Below, in pieces: positions 266 through 64,000 of a stretch of 64,000 nucleotides of DNA. A program made the position numbers and the translations under genes. How positions within the stretch are numbered: the first letter of the stretch is position 1; every line of letters begins with the position of its first letter. The DNA is from an uncultured bacterium (GTDB taxonomy: Bacteria > Chlamydiota > Chlamydiia > Chlamydiales > SM23-39), in NCBI GenBank assembly GCA_964630875.1, contig CAZVXF010000005.1, forward strand, positions 199 through 64,198, written 5' to 3'. The notes below the pieces were generated by a model. The model saw nothing but the letters and a program-made list of their open reading frames with translations, searched no databases and was not told the origin of the DNA.

Positions 266-1420
266 ATGAATATGTATTTCGATTGGAAAAAGTTGGCGAT
301 AGCGTCTTCTATTGCCGCGCTGTCGATGGCAATAAATTTACACGCAATCCCCCCAGACCCTTGCGAACCAGAAGTTGAACCTGTGTGCTGCATTGATCCT
401 ATTCCAGGACCATTTGCTTTTGCTTACCCTTTAGATCTTGGGATCAATTGTCCTCGTGATTTCTATTTCCATATCGATGGTTTAGCTTTCCAAGCAAAAC
501 AAGACGGAATGGAGTTTGCGATTCAAGCAAGATCGGAGACTTCAGGTAGACCTATTGCTCCAATCACATATGGTAAAGTGATTGGTTTTGGTTTCTCCGA
601 TGGTTGTGGATCTTGGGACTATAATCCAGGAGCACGTGTTGGACTTGGATTTTATTTAGATCATGATGCATGGAATATTGACCTGAATTGGACATGGGTG
701 CATGTAACCAATTACAAATCTGTACATGCAGACCATGATTCTGTTTTGATCCCTTTATGGTTACTCGGATCTAGCGATGCAGCTCCTGGCGTTTTTGGTA
801 CAAGCGCAAGCGCTGCATGGAATGTGTGCTATAACGTATTTGATTTATCTTTAGCTAAGCCTTATTACGTAAGCCGTTATTTCATTTTGAATCCATTTTT
901 TGGGGCAAGAGTTGCTGACATTCATCAACATTTCTCCGTCCACTACGCTGGTTCTACTCCAGAATTCGAAGCGATTCATCATGGTGAAAAAAATGAATTC
1001 TATGGAGTTGGCGCTAGATTTGGTGTGAACTCTGATTGGATTCTTGGAAAAGGCTGGTGGCTTTTTGCGAATTTCTCCGCATCGCTACTTGCTGGAAAAT
1101 TTGAAGTCCATCAGAACTTAAATGTTCCTGCTAACGGAACAACGATCACACCTTCTGGTGTAGATGGTTTTGATATTCATTCAGATTATTTCCAAAATAC
1201 ACCAAACATGGAAATTGCTTTAGGTCTTGCTTGGAGCAAAGCCTTTGACTGCAATAGATACCGTGTTGGATTGAGAGCTGCATACGAATTCGTTGAATGG
1301 TGGGATCAACTCAATATGAGAAAATTCTTCTCAGGAAATCCTGGCTACGCAAACGATGTCGTATCAAGAGGAAACCTAACTTTCAATGGGTTCTCTCTCA
1401 AATTACAACTCGATCTCTAA
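266..1420 (+). CDS. Putative outer membrane beta-barrel protein (MOMP/porin-like)
   Basis: Signal-peptide-like N-terminus (MNMYFDWKKLAIASSIAALSMAINLHA) followed by a Cys-rich stretch (CEPEVEPVCC). The rest is Gly/aromatic-rich with alternating beta-strand-like segments up to the C-terminus. A strong terminator follows. The family name is from recall only. Confidence 0.6.
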   Translation: MNMYFDWKKLAIASSIAALSMAINLHAIPPDPCEPEVEPVCCIDPIPGPFAFAYPLDLGINCPRDFYFHIDGLAFQAKQDGMEFAIQARSETSGRPIAPITYGKVIGFGFSDGCGSWDYNPGARVGLGFYLDHDAWNIDLNWTWVHVTNYKSVHADHDSVLIPLWLLGSSDAAPGVFGTSASAAWNVCYNVFDLSLAKPYYVSRYFILNPFFGARVADIHQHFSVHYAGSTPEFEAIHHGEKNEFYGVGARFGVNSDWILGKGWWLFANFSASLLAGKFEVHQNLNVPANGTTITPSGVDGFDIHSDYFQNTPNMEIALGLAWSKAFDCNRYRVGLRAAYEFVEWWDQLNMRKFFSGNPGYANDVVSRGNLTFNGFSLKLQLDL

Positions 1421-28875: not shown

Positions 28876-30424
28876 CGACTCCTACAGGGCGAAGTTCTGG
28901 AGTGTCAGGAATATCCAGTTTTGCTGATTCCGCCATCACTTGATCAAACTGTTTTCCAAGAGATATTGTTGCAAATATCCAAACAACTCCAACAATTAAG
29001 AAAATTCCTGCCACATATGGAGTACTTGCTGCTACGGTCGAAAAGAGAATCAATAAGCCTTGATGGACGACAGATCCGCCCGATTTGCCCAGTCGAGAAC
29101 CTACGCCATCAATTGCAGCTTTTCCTTTCAATCGAGACTCCGCACTTAATGGAATAAAGGAAATCTCTTTGGTCGCATCAAAAATTGTATACTTGCAGGA
29201 TCTGGTTGTACAGTTATGAACAGAGCCCAGAAAAACGCTCATTACAAGCGGCGACATGCTCGCCATGAAAGGAACCCAAGCAAGCGCATTTTGATTGAAG
29301 ACCGCAAAAAAGAAGAACCCAACGCCTGCAACTAAAGTGATGACAGGGGTCACAAGTGCGCTTGCTGTCCAAGAAAATTTACGAATCACATTCCCAGTAA
29401 TGAAAACGGAAATCACAGTGGCGATAATGCCCATCCAGGACATGACTTCGCCCATATAAACATTATAATCATTTGGATTTGGATATAATTGCTTAATCTG
29501 ATTTTTCCAAACAACTTCAACCAAATTAATCCCGATATTGTAACAAAGAACGATCAGAGCAATGCAAACTAAATATTTGGATTTTGCAAGATATGCAAAA
29601 TTCTTACGCATTGACATTTTGACTTTTTCTGGCTTAGATCCGTTCGCTATTGGTTCTTCTGAAGGATGGATTACATATTTATTGAGCCACCGGAAAATGC
29701 CCATTGTAATGAGTCCAGAAACAATGATTGAACAACACAAGAAAAGAACCGATTGTTCCCAAGCATCTTTCCCATATGGAAGCCATTTCAAGAAGACGCC
29801 TCCAGAGAAATAAATCGCCATTTGCCCCGCAAAAAATCCAGCAATATTGGCTCCGACACTCCATAAGATATAGAATCTCCGCGCTTCTCCGACTTTTGTC
29901 ACCTCATTGGCAAAGCCCCAGAACAGAACCGCCATGATCGCTGTACTCCAGAGTTCGCTCATCACATAGAAAAGAGTGAACGTCCAATTACGAAACATTG
30001 CGATCAAACCCTTAAATCCTTCAGGAAGAGAGGCTTGCACTTGATCGGCAAAGGCATGCGGGTGTAGAAATTCTTGTGCTGGAAATAAAACAAAAGCAAA
30101 TAAAAAGAAGAATGAGAGGAAAAGTCCCATCATAATATAAAAAACTTTCTCTCGTGAATAGCGATTTGCGAGCCGGGTAAATAAAAAAGTTAACAATAAA
30201 GCCGCAGGGAGAATTGCCCAAACCTTGATGAATGGAATTGCCTCGGCGCCCGAATTGGAAGCAGTGACAACCATTGAATCTTTGTATGCACGAAGAGAAT
30301 TGTAATTAAATGAGATCAAAAAGTAGATGAAGAACATAGGGAGAAATTTTTTCAATTCCCAACTATGAATCGGCCAAAAGAAAGAGCGCCAACCTTTGAA
30401 CTCTGACGTAGACTCTATCTTCAT
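28865..30424 (-). CDS. Nucleotide transport protein (ATP/ADP translocase, NTT/Tlc family), copy B
   Basis: Paralogue of 27358..28875 with the same motif set. Tandem arrangement with an 11-nt overlap. Confidence 0.9.
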   Translation of the reverse strand: MKIESTSEFKGWRSFFWPIHSWELKKFLPMFFIYFLISFNYNSLRAYKDSMVVTASNSGAEAIPFIKVWAILPAALLLTFLFTRLANRYSREKVFYIMMGLFLSFFFLFAFVLFPAQEFLHPHAFADQVQASLPEGFKGLIAMFRNWTFTLFYVMSELWSTAIMAVLFWGFANEVTKVGEARRFYILWSVGANIAGFFAGQMAIYFSGGVFLKWLPYGKDAWEQSVLFLCCSIIVSGLITMGIFRWLNKYVIHPSEEPIANGSKPEKVKMSMRKNFAYLAKSKYLVCIALIVLCYNIGINLVEVVWKNQIKQLYPNPNDYNVYMGEVMSWMGIIATVISVFITGNVIRKFSWTASALVTPVITLVAGVGFFFFAVFNQNALAWVPFMASMSPLVMSVFLGSVHNCTTRSCKYTIFDATKEISFIPLSAESRLKGKAAIDGVGSRLGKSGGSVVHQGLLILFSTVAASTPYVAGIFLIVGVVWIFATISLGKQFDQVMAESAKLDIPDTPELRPVGVDGR

Positions 30425-41133: not shown

Positions 41134-43842
41134 GTGCGTATTAGTGTTTTAATTTTTTCTTATTCTATTTCAGCATTTGCAGCAGATAGTTTTTGGAATG
41201 ATGCTGTCAACGGAAGTTCATGGAACTTTGCAAATCATTGGTCTCCTTCGGGGGTTCCAGGAGCTGCTAATACTGCGATCTTTAATACAATCGCAACCAA
41301 TCTGTCTGATCAATTCAAGATTTCAATCATTGCACCAGTCACTGTTGGCTCAATGGAATTCAACAATGAAAATCCCGCAACAGGCTACTGGATTTTTGGA
41401 ATGACTCCACTGCAACTCAATGCAAACATTGGCAATTCCTTTATTTCTGTGAAAGCAAATAACCACTCGCAAGTGCTGATTGACGTTCCAATCATTCTGG
41501 GAAAAGATTTAGAGATCATCAATGGAAGCGCAAATCCGATTATTTTGAACCAAAAGTTATCCGGAGCCAGCCGCAATGTGAGAGTGGCAGGTCTTACTGA
41601 GTTTTCAGGTTCCGAACCAAATTCATATACAGGAATGACAAAGGTCAAAAACGGAACACTTTTTTTGAATAAATCAAAAGGTGTGAACGCAATTTCCGGA
41701 AACCTCATCATAGATTCTGGAAGCGTCGAGTATTTGAGCGACTTGCAAGTTGCAAATTCAAGTATTGTTACCTTGCAGGATAACGCAGTCTTCAATCTTA
41801 ACTCTCACCAGGAAACCATTCGAACCCTTCAACTTAAAAAAAGCTCTTCACCAAACACTGTAAAAATCGGTGTCGATGGTGCCCTTTCGATCTCTGATAC
41901 TCTAGAACTTGCAGATCACTCAAGCATTGAAGGTTTAGGTTCCTTATTTCTTTCAGGTGATCATGCAAAAATCTCCTTCATCGGTTCAACACATTATGGT
42001 CAGATCAATACTGCGCTTCATTTAGGCAACCAAATGAGAACCATCGAGGTCAATGCAAATCCTCCCTTATCTTTAAATGGCCCTATCTTAGATGGCGGAA
42101 TCATTAAAACAGGCGCTGGGATTCTGGAGATCGCAACCCATGCGAATCTTTCAGGCTTTGTCATCGAAGAAGGCGGTGTCCATCTCAATGGAAGACTTGC
42201 AAGTGTAAGCCCTGTTCAAATTTATCCAGATGCGTTTTTATATGGGAAAGGTTCAATTGATGGGAATTTAGTGATTCACGGAACGGTGTCTGTCGGAGAA
42301 ATCATTCCCGACAATACCTCTTATGACAAAACAGAGTATTTCTCATTTGATAAAGTTTCAGACATTGAAAATTCTAAATCCCAACTTCTGTTTTTGACTG
42401 GAGATTTCCAATCCGCGCATGTTTCAGAAGGGATTCATGTCAATGGGGATATCACTTTCTCGCCTCAATCAACTCTTGTGATTAAGTTTAGTCCAAATCT
42501 GTTAAGCCGCATTGATACGACTGGGAAAATCATTCTTGATTCGACAAATATTTTATTAAGCCCAACAGAAGGAATTTACAACCTCAATCAGAAATATGAC
42601 ATTCTTTATGCGGGATCAATTTCAGGACAAATCGGAACCGTGTCGAGCCGATTTGCACTCATTAATCCAATCATTTCATACATTACAGAGGACTCTTATA
42701 CAGCCGTCTCTTTTACTTTATCTCTCAATCACTTCTCAGATTTATTTACCTCTGGGAACGCATCACTTGTAGCTGCCTATTTAGATTCACTTGCTTTAGA
42801 TCCGCACGATAATTCGCCAATTATTATCGAGGCTTTGATCAATACACCCACCCTCAAAGAAATTAGCGATTCACTCTCGCAATTGCAACCCTCTGCTTTT
42901 ACCTCTCTTCCAGTCTCTTTAGAGAACGATCTTTTTTATATCCGTAATTCGATTTATAGTCGGTTGTATCAAGAACAACAAAATTGTCTATGCATTATTG
43001 AAAATGAATGCCCCATTCATGTTTGGGGAGGGGCCTTTGGCGGTATTGCAAACCAAATCAATCAAAGTGGCGAGCCAGGTTTTCGAGCCTCGTCTCCTGG
43101 CGCAATTTTAGCAGTGGATGCAAACATCAAGGAAAATGTTGTTTTGGGTGGCGCTGTTGGTTACCTATACACTTTTCATGAGTGGAAACGACATCGTGGC
43201 GATGCAAACATTCATACAATTTCTGGATCTATCTACTCACAATATGCAAAACCAACAAGCTTCTTTGTTGGAAATATCACAGGAGGTTATAGCTTCTATG
43301 ATGTGGACCGCAAAATCAATTTAGGCCCAGGAAATGTTTTACACGCTAATGCAAATAGCCGCTTTGGAGGATTCGAAGGTTCTATTGATCTAAAATTTGG
43401 AGCCCATTTTCCTGTGCGATCAACAATTATTACTCCATTTCTTGGTTTTGATTACATGGTCGTTCATCAAAATGAAGCACATGAACATGGCGCGCGTGTT
43501 TTGAATCTTAATATTGAAAGTCATATTGCCGATCTTCTTACAAGCGAAGGCGGATTTGAATTTAGCTTTTGTCATTGGAAAGATCAGACCTTCTTAAAAG
43601 CGCTCCTGCGATTGAGTGCGATCGCAGAAAGCCGTTTCTTTGGCAAAACGGTAGAAGCCTCTTTCCACACAGGCGGAAAGTTTAAAGCAAGAGGGCTTTA
43701 CCCATCACGCGTTCTTGGCGCCTTTGGAGCAGGCCTTAGTGCTTCCTTTGACAGAAGCACAATCTTCATATCCTATCAAGCGAAGACAAATTGGAATTTT
43801 ACTGACCAATTCTTAACGCTTGAATACCTCTGGAGATTTTAA
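41134..43842 (+). CDS. Autotransporter outer membrane protein (Pmp-like passenger plus C-terminal beta-barrel)
   Basis: GTG start with signal peptide MRISVLIFSYSISAFA. The passenger carries autotransporter-associated beta-strand repeats (YTGMTKVKNGTLFLN, GGIIKTGAGILEI). The C-terminal roughly 280 aa form a beta-barrel-like region ending in ...LEYLWRF. Confidence 0.8.
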   Translation: MRISVLIFSYSISAFAADSFWNDAVNGSSWNFANHWSPSGVPGAANTAIFNTIATNLSDQFKISIIAPVTVGSMEFNNENPATGYWIFGMTPLQLNANIGNSFISVKANNHSQVLIDVPIILGKDLEIINGSANPIILNQKLSGASRNVRVAGLTEFSGSEPNSYTGMTKVKNGTLFLNKSKGVNAISGNLIIDSGSVEYLSDLQVANSSIVTLQDNAVFNLNSHQETIRTLQLKKSSSPNTVKIGVDGALSISDTLELADHSSIEGLGSLFLSGDHAKISFIGSTHYGQINTALHLGNQMRTIEVNANPPLSLNGPILDGGIIKTGAGILEIATHANLSGFVIEEGGVHLNGRLASVSPVQIYPDAFLYGKGSIDGNLVIHGTVSVGEIIPDNTSYDKTEYFSFDKVSDIENSKSQLLFLTGDFQSAHVSEGIHVNGDITFSPQSTLVIKFSPNLLSRIDTTGKIILDSTNILLSPTEGIYNLNQKYDILYAGSISGQIGTVSSRFALINPIISYITEDSYTAVSFTLSLNHFSDLFTSGNASLVAAYLDSLALDPHDNSPIIIEALINTPTLKEISDSLSQLQPSAFTSLPVSLENDLFYIRNSIYSRLYQEQQNCLCIIENECPIHVWGGAFGGIANQINQSGEPGFRASSPGAILAVDANIKENVVLGGAVGYLYTFHEWKRHRGDANIHTISGSIYSQYAKPTSFFVGNITGGYSFYDVDRKINLGPGNVLHANANSRFGGFEGSIDLKFGAHFPVRSTIITPFLGFDYMVVHQNEAHEHGARVLNLNIESHIADLLTSEGGFEFSFCHWKDQTFLKALLRLSAIAESRFFGKTVEASFHTGGKFKARGLYPSRVLGAFGAGLSASFDRSTIFISYQAKTNWNFTDQFLTLEYLWRF

Positions 43843-52632: not shown

Positions 52633-53616
52633 ATGCGAGCGATGGTCTTAGAAGCTCTTCATAGCCCTCTAATTTTAAGAGAAGTTCCTCGCCCCACTCC
52701 AAATCCAAACGAAGCGCTGATACAAGTAAAAACATGCGGTGTTTGCAGAACTGATCTTCACATCGTTGATGGTGAACTTCCCACACCCACACTTCCTCTC
52801 ATATTAGGTCATCAAGTAGTAGGGATCATCAAAGAATTGGGTAAAAATGTCTCTAAATACAAAGTTGGTGATCGAGTAGGTGTCCCATGGCTTGGAGGCA
52901 CTTGCCACACTTGCGAATTTTGTCTATCCAACAGAGAAAACCTGTGCGATCAAGCAATCTACACTGGATACACACGAAACGGTGGATATGCCGACTTTTG
53001 TACAGCGCATGAAGATTATATGATCCCTCTCTATCACGACCATGACGATCTACATACTGCACCCCTACTCTGCGCAGGTCTGATTGGCTATCGGGCTTTT
53101 CGATTAGCAAGTCCTTCTAAAACAATTGGCTTTTATGGTTTTGGATCCTCCGCTCATATATTGATTCAAGTGGCGATTGCTTTGGGCTCGGAAGTCTATG
53201 TATTCACTCGAAAAGGCGATCTAGAAACGCAAAACTTTGCCTACTCATTAGGGGCAAAATGGGCCGGAGGATCGGACGAACTTTCCCCCATTCCCCTAGA
53301 CGCTGCAATTATTTTTGCACCCGTCGGCGCGCTTTATCCACAAGCCTTAAAAACAATTAAAAAAGGCGGGAAAGTGATCAGCGCTGGCATTCATATGAGC
53401 GATATTCCCTCATTTCCGTATCGTCTATTGTGGGAAGAGCGATCCATCTCCTCCGTTGCCAACCTCACGCGTCAAGATGGACTTGATTTTATGCAGCTCA
53501 TTCAACAAATTCCCATTCAGGTTAAAGCAACCCCCTATTCATTAACAGACGTCAATCAAGCTCTTTCAGCGATCCGTAACGGATCCCTCGACGGTTCTGC
53601 AGTCATTACCATCTAG
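52633..53616 (+). CDS. Zinc-dependent alcohol dehydrogenase (MDR family)
   Basis: Catalytic Zn motif GVCRTDLH, structural Zn cluster CHTCEFCLSNRENLC and the Rossmann motif GFGSSAH. Confidence 0.85.
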   Translation: MRAMVLEALHSPLILREVPRPTPNPNEALIQVKTCGVCRTDLHIVDGELPTPTLPLILGHQVVGIIKELGKNVSKYKVGDRVGVPWLGGTCHTCEFCLSNRENLCDQAIYTGYTRNGGYADFCTAHEDYMIPLYHDHDDLHTAPLLCAGLIGYRAFRLASPSKTIGFYGFGSSAHILIQVAIALGSEVYVFTRKGDLETQNFAYSLGAKWAGGSDELSPIPLDAAIIFAPVGALYPQALKTIKKGGKVISAGIHMSDIPSFPYRLLWEERSISSVANLTRQDGLDFMQLIQQIPIQVKATPYSLTDVNQALSAIRNGSLDGSAVITI

Positions 53617-54167
53617 GGAATTGCAAAACAAGCATCCGATTTTTGAGTTTGTTTGGGTATAATATGCTTACAAATCTTCGTAGCCTTTTCAAAAGGCTCT
53701 TCAAGAATTGTTCGTCCTATAACGGTTGAATCACTTACTTTGTATTTAATATTACCTTTATCAACGGATACAATAATCAAATCACTTACATCGTTTCCCA
53801 TATTGTCCTGAAAGAAAATAACCATTTCGATATTGTCAGGAGTGAAAGGATACTTTGCTAAATAAGGCCTAATTTTTTCATTTTCATTAATTGCAGTAAC
53901 AAGAATATTGACGCAATCGATAATCATAGGTCTCGTTTCATCTATTGTAAGAGGCCTTCTGCATTCAAAAGCTAAATATAACATTTTGATTTCATCCATC
54001 ATTTGTCCTCCATTACCAAAAGGACTTAATCCATATTTCTTTGTGATGGCTTTAGCAGTATTTACAAGGACTGAATTCGCTAGTTTTTCTTTTTCGCTGA
54101 CTGGGTATGATGTTTGGGTGCTACAGCTACAAAATAAAAATAAAAAAATTAAGCACACCTTAATCAT
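53613..54167 (-). CDS. Hypothetical lipoprotein (candidate immunity partner of the upstream hydrolase)
   Basis: Lipobox LFLFCSCS. There is an 8-nt overlap with the upstream gene. The C-terminal roughly 10 codons run into the repeat junction. Confidence 0.5.
   Translation of the reverse strand: MIKVCLIFLFLFCSCSTQTSYPVSEKEKLANSVLVNTAKAITKKYGLSPFGNGGQMMDEIKMLYLAFECRRPLTIDETRPMIIDCVNILVTAINENEKIRPYLAKYPFTPDNIEMVIFFQDNMGNDVSDLIIVSVDKGNIKYKVSDSTVIGRTILEEPFEKATKICKHIIPKQTQKSDACFAIP
53615..53662. repeat. Composite repeat junction: GGAATTGCAAAAC motif fused to the right half of the TATACCCAAACAA palindrome
   Basis: agggaattgcaaaac (identical to the MITE terminal repeat at 15271..15285) is followed by ccgatttttgagtttgtttgggtataat (identical to 46983..47010). 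This marks the core/island boundary. Confidence 0.65.
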
Positions 54168-55401
54168 TGTAAATCCCTTTTCTTAATAAATAATCATCAA
54201 TATGCTGAAATAACACTTTAAAATATGTGCGACTTCGATAATTATGATCCATTCCTTCTGCTTCAGGATGAGGTTCCAAAATAATTAATTCTCCACGATT
54301 GGCTATCGCTTTTTGCAGTCGCTCATCTAAGAGTCTGCCTTTGTATCCTGTTAAAGAATTTACTATGGCTGTTTCTGCTGAGCATAAATATATTTCAGCA
54401 TTAGGAACAATATCGGCCTTACTCGCGTAATTATAAGATTTATAACACAGATTAGTTGGGATAAGAGTTGCCGGCGCTATAGCTATTACTATAATCCTTT
54501 CACGAACCTCTTTTGGGAGTCCTTCCAATGCATTTTTCACATGAATAGTACCTTGACTATGACAATTCTGCAAATATTTTGCATGAGGGTTATTTTTATT
54601 TTCTTCATGAAATACAAGCCAGTTCTCTCTCAGCAATTTCTCAGTGATCGGAGAATATCCAGACATATTCACTAAACCTGCTTCAATTCCATCTAAAATC
54701 GGATTATTCGAACAATTATATACCCACTCTACTGCTAATTCCTTCGTAAACTTTTTTAAGTACTCTGAGTTTAAAACCGCATCACAAAGAGAATTCCCTA
54801 TCCCGTTTATACCACCGATTCTCATTGTAGGCTGCTGATTACCCGTAGTTCTAAATGTCATAGAAGTATTGTATTGCGGTTTTAGAGGTAAAACTTCAGG
54901 ATCCGCAATGTAATCCATGTATTGTGATTCAAATAGCCAATGACCCCAATTTTGTTGCAAGGGCATCATTTCCGATGAAAAAACAGGTAAATTCCTATCT
55001 AACTTAGGGATTTCGGTGTATGTGTTGCTTGGAACGCTTGAAACTTGAGAATCACTATTCAGACCTTCCGCAAGAGCAGCAACACCCGAACAAAGAGCTG
55101 AATCTGCTACTAGAGCGGCCACGCCGGCAGTCAGAATAATCGCTGCCGTCACAGCAGCACCATCGAGAATTACTCCTCCCGTAATCAAGATAATTTTTTT
55201 ATGTTTTTGCCAAAAAGATTTTTTCTCCTTCGTCGACTTATGAGAAAAAAGCTGTGTGTTTTGTGCAACTTTCGCAATCTTTTCAACGCCAGACTGATCA
55301 CTCCATACGAACTTTTTATGAAATTTTTCTCCATCTAAATATGTGCTATTTTCAGAAAAGAGAACGGAATTGAATTCACAAGAATCAATAGTAGCCATCA
55401 C
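54160..55401 (-). CDS. Membrane-anchored alpha/beta-hydrolase-like protein (lipase-type nucleophile elbow)
   Basis: Bilobed Gly/Ala-rich hydrophobic region (IILITGGVILDGAAVTAAIILTAGVAALVADSALCSGVAALA), an oxyanion-like IGGINGIGNS, a nucleophile elbow CHSQG, and later Asp/His candidates (ASKADIV and GMDHNY). Confidence 0.55.
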   Translation of the reverse strand: MMATIDSCEFNSVLFSENSTYLDGEKFHKKFVWSDQSGVEKIAKVAQNTQLFSHKSTKEKKSFWQKHKKIILITGGVILDGAAVTAAIILTAGVAALVADSALCSGVAALAEGLNSDSQVSSVPSNTYTEIPKLDRNLPVFSSEMMPLQQNWGHWLFESQYMDYIADPEVLPLKPQYNTSMTFRTTGNQQPTMRIGGINGIGNSLCDAVLNSEYLKKFTKELAVEWVYNCSNNPILDGIEAGLVNMSGYSPITEKLLRENWLVFHEENKNNPHAKYLQNCHSQGTIHVKNALEGLPKEVRERIIVIAIAPATLIPTNLCYKSYNYASKADIVPNAEIYLCSAETAIVNSLTGYKGRLLDERLQKAIANRGELIILEPHPEAEGMDHNYRSRTYFKVLFQHIDDYLLRKGIYND

Positions 55402-55654
55402 AATCTCCAGAGAAAATTTTAATGGCGAATTCTAAAAAAATATGTTGATATTTTCAACAACACTTTTGACGAGAGGGCTCTCAACAAAGAGCTCCTAATT
55501 TTAAAAATTGTACTAATAAAATACTCTGTACTACAGCGTTTCATTAATTTTGACAATTGTTGGGTAAAGCTTTTTTAGTTTGATTCTTGCATCCTCAACA
55601 GTGAATCGCCAATCAACAACATGTGCATCTTTGTTTCTGTTCTCCCCGACGTAG

Positions 55655-55910
55655 CATAGTATAGCCAGAAAGCATTGGTCGATAGAGAACGGGCTACATC
55701 GATCTTTAGATATGGTGTTTAAGGAAGATTCAGCACAGGAACATGATCGAAATGCAGCCGCTAATTTATCTGTGTTACGCAAAATTGCTCTCTCGCTTCT
55801 GAAAGCAATAGATCCTCATAAGAAGTTAAAAATTAAAATGAAAGAATGTGCTTACTCACCAGTTTTTCGCAGTCGTTCTTTATTGGGAGAATTTTAATGC
55901 GTCAGTTCTG
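55655..55910 (+). mobile_element. 3' remnant of an ISAs1-family IS (transposase C-terminal 81 codons plus the IS end)
   Basis: The in-frame translation HSIARKHWSIENGLHRSLDMVFKEDSAQEHDRNAAANLSVLRKIALSLLKAID... matches the conserved HW.IEN.LHW.LDV.F.ED..R.R..NA..NLA.LR..ALNLL C-terminus of ISAs1 (H-repeat) transposases (recall). It has no N-terminal roughly 290 aa. Its last roughly 110 nt are repeated in inverse orientation at 60166..60275. Confidence 0.75.
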
Positions 55911-56027: not shown

Positions 56028-57875
56028 GTGCGATATTTTCTGTTCCTATTATGCATAAGTTTTTCTCTTTTTCCTAATGATGATTGGGAAGATAAAGAAA
56101 CTTTCCAGTATGGATCTTTTGTAACATATGCTGGTTTGGAGTTGCGATGCGACAGAGGTTGTGGGGATCCTGAATACGATCGAAATGCAGATAAAATAAA
56201 TTACCTATGTTGTGAATGGTTGCGGAAGCCAATTAATCCTGACTTCTATTCTCGGTTGCGGTGGAGGCATGCGGAAAATGTAAATCTACAACCTTGGGAA
56301 TCTTCTACACTGAGTCGTTCCGACTGGGAAGGCAGTTTTGAAAGATTTGAGGAATATGAAGATGAAGGCATGTCTCATGGAGAATTTCTAAAAACTTCTT
56401 CTGAATTTTTAGAAGAGATAAGCAATCTTGCTTTCGTTTCACAAGAAGATCTCCAGCATCATAAAAAAAATATTCAAAAAATCCAGGAATTACAAACCCT
56501 TGGAGCTCGTTTCATTGAGTGGAATGACGAAGACGAAGTAGAGGGATATGAACGAGGATCGTTCAATTCTTCTACTATTCGAAATGCAATGGATTCAGAA
56601 ACAAGAGCCGTTTCTCGGTGTGAAAGAGAACTGGAATGTTATGAGCAATATCGGGATTATGCAGAAGATACTTTTCGACTTGTAGATGCAACATTCAAAA
56701 AAATATTCATCAATTGTCTGGAGAAACACCAGTCTGAGGGGATTACTTTTCGCGCCGCTCTAAATGATCTAATGCAGAATAACTTAGACGATGCTCTTGA
56801 ACGACTTGAGTTTTTAGTAAAGCTCGCAGAAACAAAAAATTGGGACGGAAAATTGATTGCTAAACTGCAATTACTCCAAGGAGAAGTGGAGAATGAGCTT
56901 TGCCTTTACGCTGATGCGATTGTAACTCTAACTTCTTCCATACAGCGCGATCCTAGTTGTAAAGAAACTTATCTCGAACGAGCGAGAGCTTACTTTGAAA
57001 CTGGCGAATTTGAATCGGCTTTTCAAGATTTCTTATCTTCAGGCATCAAAAGTACTCCAATTGATCCCCAAAATAAATCCCTTATCGCTTTTGCTTCTGG
57101 CATTATGTCTGGAACTCTGCGCGGAGGTCAAGAGGGGCTAACAGAGTTCATTCCTTCATTGATTACTTCTTTAAAAATGCTTGGATCAGGGGTTTGGGCT
57201 TTTGTTCAAAATCCAGTAGAAATTTCTTCCGAATTTGCTAACGCGGTATACGATATAGTTGAATCTGTGCAATCGTTTGAGGATTTCTCTTCTATCTTAA
57301 TCCCGGAATTAAAGGATCTAGTTTCCAATTGGGAAGAAATGTCCTCTTTTCAAAAGGGAGGGTCTTGTGGTCACATTATAGGAAAATATGGGATCGATAT
57401 TCTTTTACCTTTGGGTGTTGCAAAAGGAGGAAAAGCATTTGTTAAATTGAGACAAGCTTCTGCAGTTCATGTATTTGAATCATATGTAAAAACGGAAACA
57501 AACGCATTGCAACTTCAGAAAAAAGCTCAATTAGCGCTAGCGCGCAGAACTGGTCAATTAAAAAATGCTGCCTACGCAGAAATTGAGGATAGAAAAATTA
57601 CTAAATATGCATTGGAAAAAAGTGGCAAATCTAATGGTTTCAGAGAGATTTTAGGTTATAATGAATCAAACTGGGAAGAACTGCAAGATAGCATTAAAAA
57701 AGGTATTTTGAAAAATAAGGCTAAGTTCCATAAGATTGATCAGTATGGCGTTAAATTTTCAGTAGATATGTTAATTGAAGGGCCTAAGGGTAAAGCTAAC
57801 GTTAGAACAGGATGGATATACGATCTGGGAAGCGATAAGCCACGCCTTACTACACTGTTTGTATGCACGAAGTAG
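56028..57875 (+). CDS. Polymorphic-toxin-like secreted protein A1 (conserved N-terminal and TPR regions, Gly-rich hydrophobic module, DUF6883-like C-terminal tip)
   Basis: GTG start with a hydrophobic N-terminus MRYFLFLLCISFSLF. It shares CD.GCGDP.YD and EGYER motifs and a TPR-like segment with the 61304 paralogue. The C-terminal segment KITKYALEKSGKSNGFREILGY...W..L...DQYGVKFSVDMLIEGPKGKANVRTGWIY...PRLTTLFV fits my recollection of the DUF6883 pattern. Confidence 0.7.
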   Translation: MRYFLFLLCISFSLFPNDDWEDKETFQYGSFVTYAGLELRCDRGCGDPEYDRNADKINYLCCEWLRKPINPDFYSRLRWRHAENVNLQPWESSTLSRSDWEGSFERFEEYEDEGMSHGEFLKTSSEFLEEISNLAFVSQEDLQHHKKNIQKIQELQTLGARFIEWNDEDEVEGYERGSFNSSTIRNAMDSETRAVSRCERELECYEQYRDYAEDTFRLVDATFKKIFINCLEKHQSEGITFRAALNDLMQNNLDDALERLEFLVKLAETKNWDGKLIAKLQLLQGEVENELCLYADAIVTLTSSIQRDPSCKETYLERARAYFETGEFESAFQDFLSSGIKSTPIDPQNKSLIAFASGIMSGTLRGGQEGLTEFIPSLITSLKMLGSGVWAFVQNPVEISSEFANAVYDIVESVQSFEDFSSILIPELKDLVSNWEEMSSFQKGGSCGHIIGKYGIDILLPLGVAKGGKAFVKLRQASAVHVFESYVKTETNALQLQKKAQLALARRTGQLKNAAYAEIEDRKITKYALEKSGKSNGFREILGYNESNWEELQDSIKKGILKNKAKFHKIDQYGVKFSVDMLIEGPKGKANVRTGWIYDLGSDKPRLTTLFVCTK

Positions 57876-57882
57876 AAAATCT

Positions 57883-58446
57883 ATGAACGTCGGCGATAAA
57901 ATTTTAATTACTTATAATATTTCTCTAAGAAATTTAAAAGGCTTTATCGTGTCTTCTCTTCCCCCAGTCAATTCAAAAACGTACTTGGTTAAAATTTCTT
58001 TTAAAAAGCCGCTTTTTGTCACAGTAAAAGAATCTGAATTTATTCGAGTGGGTAAGAAAGAAGTACGTTTATCTGCTCCTTCTTTTTTCCATGAAACAGG
58101 ATGTGATGGAACGATCGTCGGCGTGCTACCTCGCAGCCACTATCTTTGCGAATTTGATGAGCCTTTCTGTAATATTATCCTTAAAGAAAAGGAAATTATG
58201 AAATGGGAGCCAGAGAAAGGGGTTTTTGCTCTTTTAGATGTTGTCCGGCTCACAGAAGATTTTCCTGAATATAACTTAAAAAAGGGCGCTGAAGGAACTA
58301 TTGTCCTTGTATTCTTTAAGCCATCCCTTGCGTATGATGTTGAATTTCATTTTGGAGAAGATGCAGATCCACCATGGGATAACTTCACATTTTCGCCACA
58401 TCATCTCGAATTTGTTCGGAGTCTTTCAAGCTCACTTCAGAATTGA
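57883..58446 (+). CDS. Immunity-like protein I1 (three tandem small beta-rich modules, the last DUF4926-like)
   Basis: The ATG lies 7 nt after the A1 stop, at the same relative position as in the I2 copy. The C-terminal segment LDVVRLTEDFPEYNLKKGAEGTIVLVF...AYDVEF fits the DUF4926 pattern (recall). The ORF-track start at 57775 would overlap A1 by 100 nt and is not conserved between the two copies. Confidence 0.65.
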   Translation: MNVGDKILITYNISLRNLKGFIVSSLPPVNSKTYLVKISFKKPLFVTVKESEFIRVGKKEVRLSAPSFFHETGCDGTIVGVLPRSHYLCEFDEPFCNIILKEKEIMKWEPEKGVFALLDVVRLTEDFPEYNLKKGAEGTIVLVFFKPSLAYDVEFHFGEDADPPWDNFTFSPHHLEFVRSLSSSLQN

Positions 58447-58753
58447 TACAGGGTGTCGTAGAACAAACCACGACAAAAAACTTTTTTTATAGTAGAATTA
58501 CTTTTAGAGTTTATCCGAAAATAAGTCCGAGGAAATAGCTGCAAAATCTCGGACGCAAAAATTATTTAAGAAAGCCTTATAAATGAGCAATTATCGAAGC
58601 CATCAAGACTTAGTCACAAAATATGAAGAATGTGAAAAAAAGTTACGCTCTTTGAAATGTATGGATTTTCAGCACAACTCATTGTTACTATTTTGTTATT
58701 CTGTTTAAATAACCTACATATAAATCATTTCTATTCATGCTTTGCACTTCTTG

Positions 58754-59578
58754 ATTGATCCCCAAAATAAATCCCTTATCGCTTTTGCTTCTGGCATTAT
58801 GTCTGGAACTCTGCGCGGAGGTCAAGAGGGGCTAACAGAGTTCATTCCTTCATTGATTACTTCTTTAAAAATGCTTGGATCAGGGGTTTGGGCTTTTGTT
58901 CAAAATCCAGTAGAAATTTCTTCCGAATTTGCTAACGCGGTATACGATATAGTTGAATCTGTGCAATCGTTTGAGGATTTCTCTTCTATCTTAATCCCGG
59001 AATTAAAGGATCTAGTTTCCAATTGGGAAGAAATGTCCTCTTTTCAAAAGGGAGGGTCTTGTGGTCACATTATAGGAAAATATGGGATCGATATTCTTTT
59101 ACCTTTGGGTGTTGCAAAAGGAGGAAAAGCATTTGTTAAATTGAGACAAGCTTCTGCAGTTCATGTATTTGAAGCTTACGTTAAATCAGAAACAAACGCT
59201 TTGCAACTTCAGAAAAATGCTCAATTAGCACTTGTCGACAAAGTGAAGAAAACAGGTCAATTGAAAAATGCCAAGTCGGCTATTCTTTATGATGACAAAT
59301 TCACAAAATATGCATTGAAAAACGACGGAAAAGTTAAAGGATTTAGAGAAATATTAGGCTTTAATGAAACAAATTGGACAGAGCTGCAAGATAAAATTAA
59401 AAAAGGAATTTTGGAAAATATGGCAAAATTCCATAAGATAGACAAGCATGGAGCTAAATTTACAATTGACATGATAATTGAAGGCCCAAAAGGCAAGTCA
59501 AATGTTAGAACTGGATGGATATACAAACCTGGAAAAGAGCAGCCCGAGCTTACGACTTTATTCGTTTGCACAGAGTAA
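58754..59578 (+). pseudogene. Orphan C-terminal cassette A2' (start-less duplicate of A1 residues from about 345 onward, with a diverged DUF6883-like tip)
   Basis: 58754..59173 showed no mismatch to 57060..57479 in a manual comparison, and the sequence then diverges. There is no N-terminal domain and no ATG at the homology boundary, only a TTG at 58742. The frame is open to 59578. Confidence 0.7.
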
Positions 59579-59585
59579 AAAATTA

Positions 59586-60149
59586 ATGAAAAATGGCGAT
59601 AAAATCCTTATCAAGGATAGCTTTGTATTGAATGAAGCAAAGGGAACAATTTTGGCTTCGTTACCACCAGTTAATTCTAAGAAACTTCTTGTAGAAGTTT
59701 CTTATAAAAAACCATTGATCCTTGAGCTTGATGAATCAGAAGTAACAAGATCTGATAAGAATAAACATGTTCGAATTTCCAAATACTACTGTCAAGAAGA
59801 AGGAAGTGCTGGAACAATTGTGCAAGTTTTGCGCCGTGGTAAGTATCTTTGCGAGTTTGATGGCCCTTTTTGTAATATGATTTTAAAGGAAAAAGAAATT
59901 ATGAAATGGGAGCCAGAGAAAGGGGTTTTTGCTCTTTTAGATGTTGTCCGGCTCACAGAAGATTTTCCTGAATATAACTTAAAAAAGGGCGCTGAAGGAA
60001 CTATTGTCCTTGTATTCTTTAAGCCATCCCTTGCGTATGATGTTGAATTTCATTTTGGAGAAGATGCAGATCCGCCATGGGATAGCTTCACATTTTCTCC
60101 ACATCATCTCGAATTTGTTCGGAGTCTTTCAAGCACACTTCAGAATTGA
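59586..60149 (+). CDS. Immunity-like protein I2 (paralogue of I1, diverged N-terminal two modules, near-identical C-terminal module)
   Basis: Same length (187 aa) and spacing as I1. The final roughly 85 codons are nearly identical to I1, and the first roughly 100 are clearly diverged. Confidence 0.65.
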   Translation: MKNGDKILIKDSFVLNEAKGTILASLPPVNSKKLLVEVSYKKPLILELDESEVTRSDKNKHVRISKYYCQEEGSAGTIVQVLRRGKYLCEFDGPFCNMILKEKEIMKWEPEKGVFALLDVVRLTEDFPEYNLKKGAEGTIVLVFFKPSLAYDVEFHFGEDADPPWDSFTFSPHHLEFVRSLSSTLQN

Positions 60150-60165
60150 TATAAGGGTGTCGTAG

Positions 60166-60275
60166 CAGAACTGACGCATTATAATTCTCCCAATAAAGAC
60201 AGGCTACGAAAAACAGGCGAGTAAGCACACTCTTTCATTTTGATTTTTAACTTCTTATGAAAATCTATTGCTTTC
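60166..60275 (-). mobile_element. Short 3' remnant of the same ISAs1-family IS, in inverted orientation
   Basis: The reverse complement aligns to 55801..55910 with scattered mismatches and encodes LKAIDFHKKLKIKMKECAYSPVFRSLSLLGEL*. Homology stops at the same terminal sequence ...taatgcgtcagttctg. Confidence 0.75.
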
Positions 60276-60634
60276 AAATCACCCACCTTGAAGTGGACCC
60301 CAAAACTGGACAGGTCAATACGGCTGTAGAAATTCTAAACGATTCACGAGGGCCCTCTTAGGATACCCAAACAATTTACCCCTCCATAAAGAACCAAGTC
60401 AATAGGTTTTGCTGAGGTGTTGTCAATTCACTGCCCTCCCCTTCTCATTGAAAGGTAAAAAATGACCATCCCAATTTCTCTTAATTATTGTGCAAGTGGG
60501 GAGAAAAATCGTATCACGTAAAAAAATAAATCATTCCCATGAGTGGATACTTGGTGCAGAAAAATTCGCCGGTACGCTAAGTGTAGGTTTAAAAAGTGCT
60601 TTTTGAAAACAATATGGAGATCCTCCCCTGACAT

Positions 60635-61021
60635 ATGACCACTAAAAAGAAAGAATCCATTCTAAAGGAAGCGTTTTCCCTCAAAAGTCTAAAAAGGGAT
60701 TGGGAAAGAGCAATGATGACAAAAAGAGAAGAACCTTTCCTTTTCTGGTCATTTGGATCTTTAGGTGTTGCTCTTTTACTACTAGGAGGCCTGAGCTTGG
60801 CAGCAAACATTCTGTTTGTATATCGGAATGCGGCCAGCACAAAGATTCAGGTTGTTATTAGTGTTTTTACATTCTTAACCGGATTGCTTGGAATTTATCT
60901 TGTATCAAAGGGAATGATTTTATTTAGATCTCCAATGAATGATCGATTCAATCGTAGCCAGGGACTTGGTTTTGTTTTAATGATTTTCACTATTGTTTTA
61001 TGGATTTTAGCCAACATTTGA
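60635..61021 (+). CDS. Hypothetical membrane protein (128 aa, three TM segments)
   Basis: Charged N-terminus followed by three hydrophobic segments. No recognised motif. Confidence 0.4.
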   Translation: MTTKKKESILKEAFSLKSLKRDWERAMMTKREEPFLFWSFGSLGVALLLLGGLSLAANILFVYRNAASTKIQVVISVFTFLTGLLGIYLVSKGMILFRSPMNDRFNRSQGLGFVLMIFTIVLWILANI

Positions 61022-61303
61022 GGGTTTTAACCGACATTGAGCAGTTCCAAAAACCACTTTCCTGATTTATTCCAAGGCCATCCTATTCCTCTTCTGCCAC
61101 CTGCCATTCTTAAGAACTTTTCTGAGCTCTTTCAAAAGAGCTTCAAATGCTTTATTTAGAGGAAATTTCCAATATTCTTGGTTTGATCAGGTACATATAT
61201 TAGATAGCTGGTCTTTCAGTTTCTGAGAATCTCTGTCCATTGAAATCTATCATAGAGAAAACTCTTGATGTTTTTGTAGATTTTCTCCAGATTCTGAAGG
61301 ATT

Positions 61304-63169
61304 ATGTTGCATTTTCTTCTTTTTTTCTTATTTGGTGCTTTAAGCTCATTATTTTCATCTTCCGATTGGGATGAGGATAATAACTATTCCAGGTCTCTTG
61401 TCTCCTATGGAGGGATAAGTTTTTATTGTGATAATGGATGCGGAGATCCTAAATATGATTCTGAAGAAGCAGCTATCGAGTGGCTGTATACATGTTGGTT
61501 AGATAAACCATTGTATGCTTCACAACCCTTCTCGAGAAAAGACAATCATTTTATAGAGAAATTTGGGCTTTGCTCATGGACTGGCAATCAATTTTTTGAT
61601 ACGAGCATGCGCAGTTTCTTTTGGGAGGATGAGTTAAATGAAACTCATACTGGATTTCTTAAAATTTCTTCTGATTTTTTAGCAGGACTCCTTGAGATCA
61701 GGAATGAATGCGAAAAAAACATTGAAGAGTCTAAACAAAACATAAAGACTATCGAAGATCTTCAGTCTCAGGGGGCTCGCTTCATCGAAATCAACGGGGA
61801 TGAAATTGAGGGCTATGAACGCTGCTCGTGGAAAAGCACACCAATCGCGGAGGCTATTCAAGACGAAATTCGGGCGATTGCTTTTCAGCAATCCGATCTA
61901 GAAGAATGTGATCAATATCAAAAATATGCCGAAAATACTTTTGATCTGATCGATTCTCTCTACAGAAATATTTTTGTGTGGTGTTTAGAACACCACCAAC
62001 CTGAAGGGATTATTTTTAAAGAAGCGGTGGAAAATTTTATCGCTGCGGATTATGACAAAGCAATCGAGCAGATCAGGTTTTTGATCTCTCTTTCAGAAAA
62101 ACGTGCCTTTAATCCTGAATTAATCTCAAAACTCTACCTTCTTAAAGGGCAGTTCCAATCAGAGTTTTGTCAATATTCAGATGCTATTATCGCATTGACA
62201 ATAGCAATTGAGAAGGATCCAACGCAAAAAGAGACTTATTTCGAAAGAGCTGTCGCATATTTCGAGCTGGGACAATTTGAAAAATCTCTAGAGGATTATC
62301 TCTTATCAGACTTTGAAAATATTTCACCTAAAAACAAATTACAACGAGGTTTTTTTTCTTCCATCAGCTCCGGCGTTGTAATGGGGATCCTGGAAGGGGC
62401 CGCCAATTCTGCTACCGAATTTGTCCCCGAGACTTTGAGTTCTCTACGAGGAATAGGAAATGGACTATGGGCTTTTTCCAAAGATCCAATAGGAGCTTCA
62501 GTCGCTTTTGTGGAAGCCGCGACTCAATGCATAGAATACCTTGTAGAAAACTCGTCTGTCCAGATTGCCCAAGATTTGGTACCGGAACTCAAAAAATTAA
62601 TTCAGAACTATGACGATCTCGCTGACTTCGAGAAGGGCAAACTTATCGGTTATATTATTGGGAAATATGGAGCAGATATTTTGATGTGTCAATACTCTGT
62701 CAAAGCAGTAAAGGCTTATCGAAATCTCAAAAAAGCTAATCAACTTATGACCCTGGAAGCTTTAGCTTCACCCAAAAATGTTGAAAAAACATTGCAGGAA
62801 GCAAGTCAAAAATTTTGGGCTCAGAGAACTGCTATTTTGAAACAGAATAATCTCAAGATTCACCAAGGAAGACAAGGGAAGCATCTAGAGGATCATATAA
62901 ATTACCAAGAGCTTAAAAAGAGAAAGAAAAACCCCAGTATTTTCCAACATCCAGATCCACAACGATTACTTCAGACGTACGCTGGAACAGGAAGAAAAGT
63001 TTCAAGAGAACTACCTGGAACCACAGGGTATAGAGAAATTGTAGATTTTGAAGAATTTATAGGATATGCTGTTAACGAAATAACAGGAGAAAAAACGGCT
63101 ACCACCTTTGGGAAAATTCATTATGCCAAAGATGGAGTTCATATTGTCCCCTGTATCGGAAAAAACTAA
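61304..63169 (+). CDS. Polymorphic-toxin-like secreted protein A3 (same N-terminal architecture as A1, Ntox50-like C-terminal tip)
   Basis: Collinear with A1 through the N-terminal Cys motif (CDNGCGDPKYD), EGYER, the TPR-like block and the Gly-rich module (FSSISSGVVMGILEGAANSATEFVPETLSSLRGIGNGLWAF). The C-terminal segment HQGRQGKHLEDHINY...REIVDFEEFIGYAV...TGEKTATTFGKIHYAKDGVHIVPC matches my recollection of the polymorphic toxin type 50 domain (GKQ.KH...V.F...IG......T..G.IHYSK.G.HIVP). Confidence 0.7.
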   Translation: MLHFLLFFLFGALSSLFSSSDWDEDNNYSRSLVSYGGISFYCDNGCGDPKYDSEEAAIEWLYTCWLDKPLYASQPFSRKDNHFIEKFGLCSWTGNQFFDTSMRSFFWEDELNETHTGFLKISSDFLAGLLEIRNECEKNIEESKQNIKTIEDLQSQGARFIEINGDEIEGYERCSWKSTPIAEAIQDEIRAIAFQQSDLEECDQYQKYAENTFDLIDSLYRNIFVWCLEHHQPEGIIFKEAVENFIAADYDKAIEQIRFLISLSEKRAFNPELISKLYLLKGQFQSEFCQYSDAIIALTIAIEKDPTQKETYFERAVAYFELGQFEKSLEDYLLSDFENISPKNKLQRGFFSSISSGVVMGILEGAANSATEFVPETLSSLRGIGNGLWAFSKDPIGASVAFVEAATQCIEYLVENSSVQIAQDLVPELKKLIQNYDDLADFEKGKLIGYIIGKYGADILMCQYSVKAVKAYRNLKKANQLMTLEALASPKNVEKTLQEASQKFWAQRTAILKQNNLKIHQGRQGKHLEDHINYQELKKRKKNPSIFQHPDPQRLLQTYAGTGRKVSRELPGTTGYREIVDFEEFIGYAVNEITGEKTATTFGKIHYAKDGVHIVPCIGKN

Positions 63170-63816
63170 TGCAATTCCCCATATATTATGTTCTCTTAAG
63201 TGTACAGACTGCTCTAGAGAATGCCATCACTCCTCAATTACGTGCTGTAACGGTTGATCTTGATGAAAAAAAACGTGAGCTGCTTGTGTGTTTTTTCTAT
63301 CACGGAGAGATTACGGAGGAATTACGCACTTTGTCAAGCGTTGTCATGGCAGAAGTAGATGTAAATGCAAAAGAACATTACTCAATGTATGAAAACTCTG
63401 TTCAGGTGGATTTTCCAAAGAAAATTCCAATTCAGGGACGATTGGTTTTTTTGCGAAATGAACCAAATCTTCCTCAAATAGAAAAAGAAAATAGAAACTT
63501 TCTTCTTAAAGAATGGCCTCCTATAGCTGTTTTTCGGCTGAATATGCAGGAAGCTCTCTTGGGAAGAATATCTCCGTCTTTACGGCTTGTTAGCGTAGGA
63601 ATAAATGAAGATCAGAAACAACTCATATCGCATTTCATCTACGATGGAGAAATCTCAGAAGAGGACATGAACATGGCTTCTTCTGCAATTAATGAAGCTA
63701 GTTCCTTTTTCCCTCAATATAAAATCAATTCCTCCATTGAGAGAATTGATTTCCCAAATCAGATGCTTCCTCGTGGAACATGGGCTGTTTACTTAAGGCA
63801 AGAATGGAAATACTAA
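63169..63816 (+). CDS. Immunity candidate I3 (two tandem repeats of about 100 aa)
   Basis: The ATG overlaps the A3 stop (TAATG), which suggests translational coupling. The two halves are internally repeated (L.NAITPQLRAVTVDLDEKKRELLVCFFYHGEITEE versus LLGRISPSLRLVSVGINEDQKQLISHFIYDGEISEE). Confidence 0.6.
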   Translation: MQFPIYYVLLSVQTALENAITPQLRAVTVDLDEKKRELLVCFFYHGEITEELRTLSSVVMAEVDVNAKEHYSMYENSVQVDFPKKIPIQGRLVFLRNEPNLPQIEKENRNFLLKEWPPIAVFRLNMQEALLGRISPSLRLVSVGINEDQKQLISHFIYDGEISEEDMNMASSAINEASSFFPQYKINSSIERIDFPNQMLPRGTWAVYLRQEWKY

Positions 63817-64000
63817 ATCTATCGATATGAAAAGAGTTTTTCTCCTCCTGTTTTTCGTCACTTCTCTCTGCGCAAAAAGACCATTACAAGATGAGTCTGG
63901 TACTCTTTACACACCCATTTTTGCAGGCTCTCTTCTTTCATTCACGCCTCTTAATTCTCCCCCAGGCAACTGACTCTTAGAACCTTATCTTTTTGTGGGG

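Follow-up and report, generated by a model that had tools for sequence, protein, structure and literature searches.

The closest described relatives of the locus considered here are two bacterial toxin-immunity systems for which structures and biochemistry are available, MafB2/MafI2 (2023; PMC9970974) and YxiD/YxxD (2025; PMC12700104). The locus itself consists of two adjacent genes, A3 and I3, in a 64,000-nt window (the whole stretch of DNA that was analysed) from an uncultured bacterium of the GTDB lineage Chlamydiota; Chlamydiia; Chlamydiales; SM23-39 (assembly GCA_964630875.1, contig CAZVXF010000005.1). A3 and I3 are members of the known Ntox50 and MafI2 families set on a Chlamydiae-specific polymorphic-toxin scaffold. 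Taken as a whole, the locus is best explained as a chlamydial polymorphic toxin locus of which A3 and I3 are very probably a toxin-immunity pair.

MafB2-CT, from Neisseria meningitidis B16B6 (PDB 8HHJ), is a ribonuclease that requires His335, His402, and His409 for toxicity (PMC9970974). YxiD-CTD, from Bacillus subtilis 6633 (PDB 9V8I), is a metal-dependent tRNase of the BECR fold, whose activity is abolished by each of K446A, H447A, H521A, K524A, and H528A; an immunity protein encoded downstream neutralises the YxiD tRNase 1:1 by blocking its substrate site (PMC12700104). Zhang et al. 2012 list Ntox50 in chlamydiae, give it no immunity family, and describe signal-peptide ('T2SS') toxins with TPR repeats as a trafficking class (PMC3482391). 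The same survey concludes that immunity genes are mostly absent from intracellular bacteria and that these bacteria are not in competition with their conspecifics (PMC3482391). A literature search for polymorphic toxins of chlamydiae or for MafI2 proteins in tandem yielded nothing past the 2011-2012 comparative papers, and none of the papers searched describes the scaffold of A3 or a tandem MafI2 protein.

The locus resembles the Maf system in several respects. The tip of A3 is in the same family, Ntox50; the immunity gene comes directly after the toxin gene; a basic toxin is paired with an acidic immunity protein; and both are polymorphic toxins with orphan cassettes and Sec-dependent export, the latter predicted in the case of A3. 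The differences are that MafI2 has one unit (108 aa) whereas I3 has two units in 215 aa, and that Neisseria is a free-living mucosal beta-proteobacterium whereas the host here is a chlamydia. A3 is MafB-like at the tip but it is not a MafB: at E <= 1, Pfam gives A3 no match to DUF1020, the N-terminal domain of MafB, and the scaffold homologues come from Chlamydiae-type metagenome-assembled genomes (MAGs). The closest solved toxin domain to the A3 tip is YxiD-CTD. YxiD is an LXG toxin with type VII export from a Gram-positive bacterium, whereas A3 is not LXG.

The toxin tip and scaffold of A3

The two genes and their junction, as taken from the open reading frame (ORF) list and read from the sequence, are as follows.

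61304..63169, forward strand: A3, 621 aa, scaffold and Ntox50 tip (stop codon within the range)
63169..63816, forward strand: I3, 215 aa, tandem MafI2-type immunity protein (stop codon within the range)
63167..63171, forward strand: TAATG overlap of the A3 stop and the I3 start

The stop codon TAA of A3 (63167-63169) and the ATG of I3 (63169-63171) have one A in common, in the string 'aactaatgcaa', and the overlap reported in a preliminary description of this DNA is seen directly in the sequence.

That description had matched the C-terminus of A3, by a few motifs, to the polymorphic toxin type 50 family. The resemblance is borne out by profile, by sequence match to two solved toxins, and by superposition. 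In the region of residues ~500..621, Pfam places PF15542 at 519-616 with an E value of 4.9e-24 and 85.3 bits against a cut-off of 22.2, and the match is full length (profile 1-92 of 92). In a search of PDB sequences, the tip matches YxiD-CTD (9v8i_B) at E 1.7e-10 and MafB2-CT (8hhj_B) at E 9.6e-9. In an AlphaFold model of full-length A3, made from a 60-sequence alignment, pLDDT is 94-98 over the tip, and Foldseek superposes the tip on 9v8i_B, its best PDB match, over 103 columns with TM 0.81, 40% identity, and a root-mean-square deviation (rmsd) of 1.6 A. On this model, the tip is predicted to have the BECR / RNase A-like fold. The domain and its catalytic and RNA-binding residues, mapped by homology onto YxiD, lie at these positions.

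62858..63151, forward strand: Ntox50 domain, residues 519-616 (Pfam PF15542, PDB sequence matches, Foldseek)
62879-62884, forward strand: putative active-site K526, H527
63119-63121, forward strand: putative active-site H606
63128-63130, forward strand: putative active-site K609
63140-63151, forward strand: putative active-site H613-I-V-P616

All of the motifs read earlier from the translation are in place, GRQGKH (522-527), VDFEEFIGY (580-588), and GKIHYAKDGVHIVP (603-616) in the tip, and EGYER (169-173) and CDNGCGDP (42-49) in the scaffold. In the PDB sequence alignment, A3 K526, H527, H606, K609, and H613 align with YxiD K446, H447, H521, K524, and H528. All five residues essential in YxiD are kept, with the HxVP motif being H613-I-V-P616, and A3 H527, H606, and H613 align with the three histidines on which MafB2 toxicity depends. 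The tip also has the Ntox50 signature of Zhang 2012 (H, K, H, K, HxVP). Homology and the intact active site suggest that the A3 tip cuts tRNA or other RNA. By computed charge, the tip is basic (pI, or isoelectric point, 9.5; +6) and I3 is acidic (pI 5.1; -7), which is the charge pattern of the MafB2-MafI2 interface and thus argues for a toxin-immunity pair.

The remainder of A3 is a scaffold that recurs in A1, the product of a second toxin-like gene in the window. BLAST aligns A3 1-513 with A1 1-512 at 38% identity and E 8e-118, and similarity stops at A3 513 / A1 512, which places the domain-swap junction. The collinearity of A3 and A1 had been noted before; it is real, but it extends over 513 aa and not ~480. 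This collinearity, the Ntox50 match, and the internal duplication of I3 (see below) are far beyond chance. The scaffold can be divided as follows.

61304..61360, forward strand: predicted Sec signal peptide, MLHFLLFFLFGALSSLFSS, at ~residues 1-19, where hydropathy peaks; an acidic DWDED run comes next
61394..61450, forward strand: N-terminal beta-hairpin at residues 31-49, bearing the CxxxC motif in CDNGCGDP (strands 31-35 and 38-42 in the AlphaFold model)
61646..61993, forward strand: long helical hairpin tipped by the EGYER beta-hairpin, residues 115-230 (modelled helices 115-155 and 181-230, strands 160-171, pLDDT 85-98)
62000..62308, forward strand: TPR-like helical module, residues 233-335 (sub-threshold Pfam TPR at 290-333; Foldseek)
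62327..62767, forward strand: Gly-rich helical module, residues 342-488, ending in the conserved KAYRNLKKANQLMTLE motif (family alignment; pLDDT 54-79)
62768..62857, forward strand: helical linker with the domain-swap junction, residues 489-518 (the match to A1 stops at 513; the multi-class alignment splits here)

The signal peptide is called by a hydropathy heuristic rather than by a dedicated signal-peptide predictor, and by this heuristic a hydrophobic N-terminus followed by an acidic run is present in 73 of the 83 full-length family members. The TPR-like module resembles 3-repeat TPR modules in Foldseek, with TM ~0.7-0.8. Glycine zippers in the next module are almost invariant, one GxxxGxxxG (G357/G361/G365; 62372-62398) and one GxxxG (G383/G387; 62450-62464), and this region is a candidate membrane-inserting or translocation segment. 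Equally, C42, C227, and H231 are almost invariant in 60 scaffold homologues, with the consensus CxxGCG ... CLxxHQ (C42..C46 at 61427-61441; C227..H231, in the long helix, at 61982-61996). These three residues could form a Zn site or a disulfide that ties the N-terminal hairpin to the long helix.

About 97 homologues of A3 were found, mostly in Chlamydiae MAGs; the named homologues belong to MAGs of Chlamydiae, Parachlamydiales, and Rhabdochlamydiaceae or to MAGs that bear the label 'Verrucomicrobia'. By BLAST, the C-terminal tips of 98 scaffold-bearing proteins form at least 10 clusters unrelated to each other, in a sample skewed to Ntox50 by a query that contained this domain. The tips of A1 and A3 are in separate clusters, and A1 and a third paralogue, A2, carry DUF6883 where A3 carries Ntox50. 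The proposal of one scaffold joined to unrelated tips therefore applies to the family at large. Across tip classes, conservation extends through the near-invariant ...KAYRNLKKANQLMTLE... and the ~30 aa of helical linker next to it; past the linker, the sequences diverge.

This architecture bears on whether A3 is delivered at all. A3 and I3 could instead be an intracellular toxin-antitoxin module of the addiction or abortive-infection kind, in which the RNase of an undelivered A3, freed from I3 under stress or phage attack, arrests the producer. In favour of such a module, the structures of Ntox50/BECR RNases are related to those of RelE/MqsR-type toxins, and the A3 and I3 genes are tightly coupled. 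However, both a non-catalytic scaffold of ~510 aa, with a hydrophobic N-terminus in those 73 of 83 homologues, and interchangeable tips are foreign to type II toxin-antitoxin systems; the toxin gene precedes the immunity gene; and the solved relatives are exported, MafB being secreted and YxiD being an LXG toxin of the type VII secretion system. Such a module is considered highly improbable, and an exported polymorphic toxin is the reading pursued below.

I3 and the MafI2 immunity family

The gene I3 had been described as a duplication of a unit of roughly 100 aa. Its N and C halves are indeed 33% identical over 96 aa (E 3e-15), and both score alike on a repeat-unit profile built from 40 single units.

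63169..63474, forward strand: I3 unit 1, residues 1-102, alpha-beta-beta-alpha-beta-beta (repeat-unit profile, 132 bits; AlphaFold secondary structure)
63514..63813, forward strand: I3 unit 2, residues 116-215, fold as unit 1 (repeat-unit profile, 133 bits)

The AlphaFold model of I3, made from 33 sequences, has pLDDT 93.7 and pTM 0.91. Its top Foldseek match is 8hhj_A, which is MafI2 (E 2.1e-6, probability 1.00, target-normalised TM 0.73, 26% identity, 99 columns). The remaining Foldseek matches of I3 all have rmsd >13 A, and MafI2 is the only convincing relative in the PDB. YxxD was not found among these structural matches, and its fold probably differs from that of I3. The Pfam and NCBIfam scans gave no match on I3, the Pfam release scanned being older than the MafI2 model; the precomputed PF26541.1 (named MafI2) is found on I3 (P0101) and on 36 of 36 homologues of ~210-235 aa. 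Against PDB sequences, phmmer with I3 found nothing and the full-length profile gave a chance match only. The single-unit profile, run against 177,635 PDB sequences, ranked MafI2 first with a weak E value of 0.1, via the segment LLGxxxPxLRxVTVDxDE. By profile and by fold, I3 comprises two MafI2-type units in tandem, and the unit has in common with MafI2 itself the fold, in which helices pack on a sheet of four strands, and family PF26541. The suggestion that the gene downstream of A3 is an immunity candidate is borne out to this extent, and its repeat unit belongs to an immunity family that was already known.

The duplication is not recent. In other species, N units share 41-56% identity with the N unit of I3, and C units share 28-36% with it. 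An N unit thus stands nearer to another N unit than to a C unit, hence the duplication is older than the split of these lineages. This observation bears on the reading that the tip or the immunity gene has decayed, such that the module is an evolutionary relic and the duplication in I3 is drift in a dispensable gene. The neighbouring A2 is clearly truncated and the organism is known from metagenomic assemblies only, both of which are in keeping with decay. In contrast, both ORFs are intact and of lengths typical of their families, every catalytic residue is kept, the I3 units score equally on the family profile in a protein modelled with the high pLDDT given above, and two-unit orthologues at 41-58% identity are kept in many chlamydial lineages. 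The grouping of N units with N units across lineages indicates that the duplication is old and has been kept. It is accordingly hard to credit that the module is a relic, and A3 and I3 are treated here as an intact toxin-immunity pair.

The unit profile detects 1249 cluster representatives at E <= 1e-3, a family that is mostly unannotated. Among the best 150 of the 1249, two units per protein are commonest and proteins with 1, 3, 4, and 5 units occur too, in a list sorted by total score, which favours multi-unit proteins. Examples outside the window, in loci labelled here with L numbers, are a protein of 480 aa with four MafI2 units in Rhabdochlamydiaceae (L006, 6001-7443), a protein of 638 aa with five units (L009, 317-2233), and a single unit of 104 aa (L010, 2921-3235).

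Across the family, the charge of the N unit is -6.7 and that of the C unit is -2.8, and the N unit is also more variable in helix-2 and strand-3, the elements that form the MafI2 interface. This acidity and variability weakly hint that the N unit is the toxin-binding unit of I3. As read from the translation, I3 has no N-terminal hydrophobic stretch or signal peptide.

Pairing of Ntox50 with a MafI2-type gene is recurrent. A MafI2-type gene lies directly downstream of Ntox50 in seven loci, namely the window, L001, L003, L006, L007, L008, and L010; the six outside the window are arranged as follows.

L001, L003: Ntox50 followed by a MafI2-type gene, with a TAATG overlap as in the window
L007, L008: Ntox50 followed by a MafI2-type gene, with an ATGA overlap instead
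L006: four-unit MafI2 protein 11 nt past an Ntox50 toxin of 610 aa (Rhabdochlamydiaceae)
L010: single MafI2 unit past an orphan Ntox50 fragment of 70 aa

Matching of the two homologue lists suggests ~9 further toxin/MafI2 pairs.

Proposed delivery, target, and role of the pair

Based on the above, the following course is proposed. A3 would carry a cleavable Sec signal peptide that directs it to the periplasm or the cell surface. The scaffold of ~510 aa, common to A1, A2, and ~100 proteins of other Chlamydiae, would act as the carrier, comprising the Cys-motif hairpin, the long helical hairpin, the TPR module, and the glycine-zipper module. After reaching the target cytoplasm, the tip would kill by cutting tRNA or other RNA, as its homology and active site suggest. 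I3 would stay in the cytoplasm of the producer, expressed from the same transcript as A3, and the overlap of its start with the A3 stop would favour coupled translation. By analogy with MafB2-MafI2, the acidic face of at least one I3 unit may cover the basic RNA-binding groove and so block the substrate. Tip-plus-immunity cassettes may swap behind the conserved ...KAYRNLKKANQLMTLE... junction into different paralogues. The likeliest use of the system would be antagonism among related bacteria in a shared host cell or niche, and this is the least certain step.

Several points weigh against this account. The RNase activity, the toxicity, and the neutralisation are all inferred. The MafI2 interface residues are, by sequence comparison, conserved in neither I3 unit, so that the binding mode is an analogy only. 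Pfam and NCBIfam found no known trafficking domain in the scaffold, be it Rhs, PAAR, LXG, TPS, or another; apart from the tip, Foldseek with the full-length A3 model likewise returned generic TPR modules only, with no known translocation or receptor domain. The pairing of Ntox50 with MafI2 is not obligatory, since in one locus (L002, 5092-7952) a scaffold-bearing Ntox50 toxin of 707 aa, with a tip 57% identical to that of A3, is followed by a 233-aa protein that has no BLAST, Pfam, or MafI2-profile similarity. No MafI2-like ORF was found within 6 kb of this toxin, and the immunity family may have been replaced there. Lastly, the window carries two adjacent TLC/NTT ATP/ADP translocase genes (27358-30424, reverse strand) and an autotransporter gene (41134-43842, forward strand). 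Together with the names of the homologues, these genes show that the window is chlamydial and that its organism is an environmental chlamydia. With two NTT transporters, the genome resembles that of an obligate intracellular chlamydia, and the host could therefore be the target.

The last point leads to the reading of A3 as a host-directed effector, whose Ntox50 RNase is exported to the inclusion or the host cytoplasm and cleaves eukaryotic tRNA or RNA to manipulate or kill an amoebal host, while the sole role of I3 is to shield the producing cell until export, in the manner of barstar with barnase. The tandem translocases and the autotransporter fit the obligate intracellular life that this reading supposes, RNase toxins have conserved substrates, and Zhang et al. 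2012 hold that many toxin domains of intracellular bacteria are aimed at the host (PMC3482391). However, the window shows the full inter-bacterial polymorphic signature, with swapped-tip paralogues, cognate immunity genes, and a 5'-truncated orphan cassette. An adjacent immunity gene is a sign of intra-specific conflict according to Zhang et al. (PMC3482391), and proteins with 3-5 diverged MafI2 units are a better fit to incoming toxin variants than to self-protection alone. The architecture of the locus thus favours a bacterial over a host target, and a host-directed role for A3 is judged unlikely, if far less so than a toxin-antitoxin module or a relic.

Two further comparisons can be made with Zhang et al. 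2012. The survey describes Sec-dependent toxins with TPR, Sel1, or ankyrin repeats in amoeba symbionts; A1, A2, and A3 differ from these in that each has its own immunity gene, and the A3 scaffold itself is not in that description. The survey also describes fused poly-immunity proteins with several immunity domains per polypeptide, which the MafI2 proteins of 2-5 copies resemble. Its examples mostly join different families, whereas the MafI2 tandems are diverged units of one family. A further and rather speculative proposal, judged less likely than not, combines two ideas: the scaffold would be an undescribed delivery module that takes nuclease tips from one chlamydial cell through the envelope of another, and the MafI2 units would be a built-in poly-immunity. 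In the latter part, one unit may act against the cell's own tip and the others against the Ntox50 variants of competitors. If the former part were true, environmental chlamydiae would fight each other within shared amoebal hosts.

Taken alone, the A3/I3 pair is an annotation-level finding, and the current Pfam release would label both proteins. Less ordinary are the chlamydial host, the undescribed carrier with its putative Sec export, and the range of 1-5 MafI2 units per protein. A presumably obligate intracellular chlamydia-like bacterium keeps a complete locus, with three paralogues, swapped tips, immunity genes, and an orphan cassette, in contrast to the view of intracellular bacteria in the 2012 survey. 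The MafI2 fold of Neisseria is now linked to a large family (the 1249 cluster representatives above) in which the unit is repeated 1-5x, and the locus offers a concrete pair for probing how a tandem immunity protein binds its toxin.

Neighbouring genes in the window

The window holds three scaffold copies, but only a single Ntox50 tip and a single MafI2 gene; tblastn and blastn found no further Ntox50 or MafI2 copy in the 64 kb. Each of A1, A2, and A3 has its own downstream gene, I1, I2, and I3, respectively. The two modules upstream of A3 are as follows.

56028..58446, forward strand: A1 (scaffold as in A3, DUF6883 tip; A1 alone 56028..57875) and downstream I1 (DUF4926) (ORFs, Pfam, BLAST)
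58742..60149, forward strand: A2 (5'-truncated scaffold, DUF6883 tip) and I2 (DUF4926), an orphan tip/immunity cassette (ORFs, Pfam)

A2/I2 is 87-95% identical in DNA to parts of A1/I1 (tblastn, blastn). DUF6883 of A1/A2 and DUF4926 of I1/I2 are both domains to which no function is attached, and their placement in the locus predicts that they, too, may be a toxin-immunity pair. As listed, the ORFs of I1 and I2 begin at a TTG ~100 nt within the toxin gene; the true start is probably the ATG just past the toxin stop codon.

A promoter and terminator scan of 60100-64000 gave no more sites than expected from shuffled sequence, and an Rfam scan of the window found one tRNA only, unconnected with the A3/I3 locus. 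Between the second module and A3 lies a gene for a 128-aa protein with a hydrophobic-looking translation (60635-61021, forward strand). It also lies upstream of A3 in an independent assembly of the same sequence (L005), and no equivalent was seen upstream of the toxins of L003, L006, and L007.

Farther upstream, at 53613-55401 on the reverse strand, the gene for a 413-aa protein, which contains a hydrophobic segment and the GHSxG-like motif 'CHSQGT', has an 8-nt overlap with a 184-aa ORF whose N-terminus is lipoprotein-like. Neither protein has a significant Pfam or NCBIfam match, and they may be another effector/partner pair next to the toxin island. The ORFs at 55531-55897 were suspected to be transposase remnants; Pfam gave no match, and no claim is made for them. 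Downstream, 12 nt past I3, a short ORF on the forward strand (63828-63974) has a signal-peptide-like start (MKRVFLLLFFVTSLCA...) and ends after ~48 codons. It could encode a small secreted protein, or else be a gene with a frameshift at the edge of the window.

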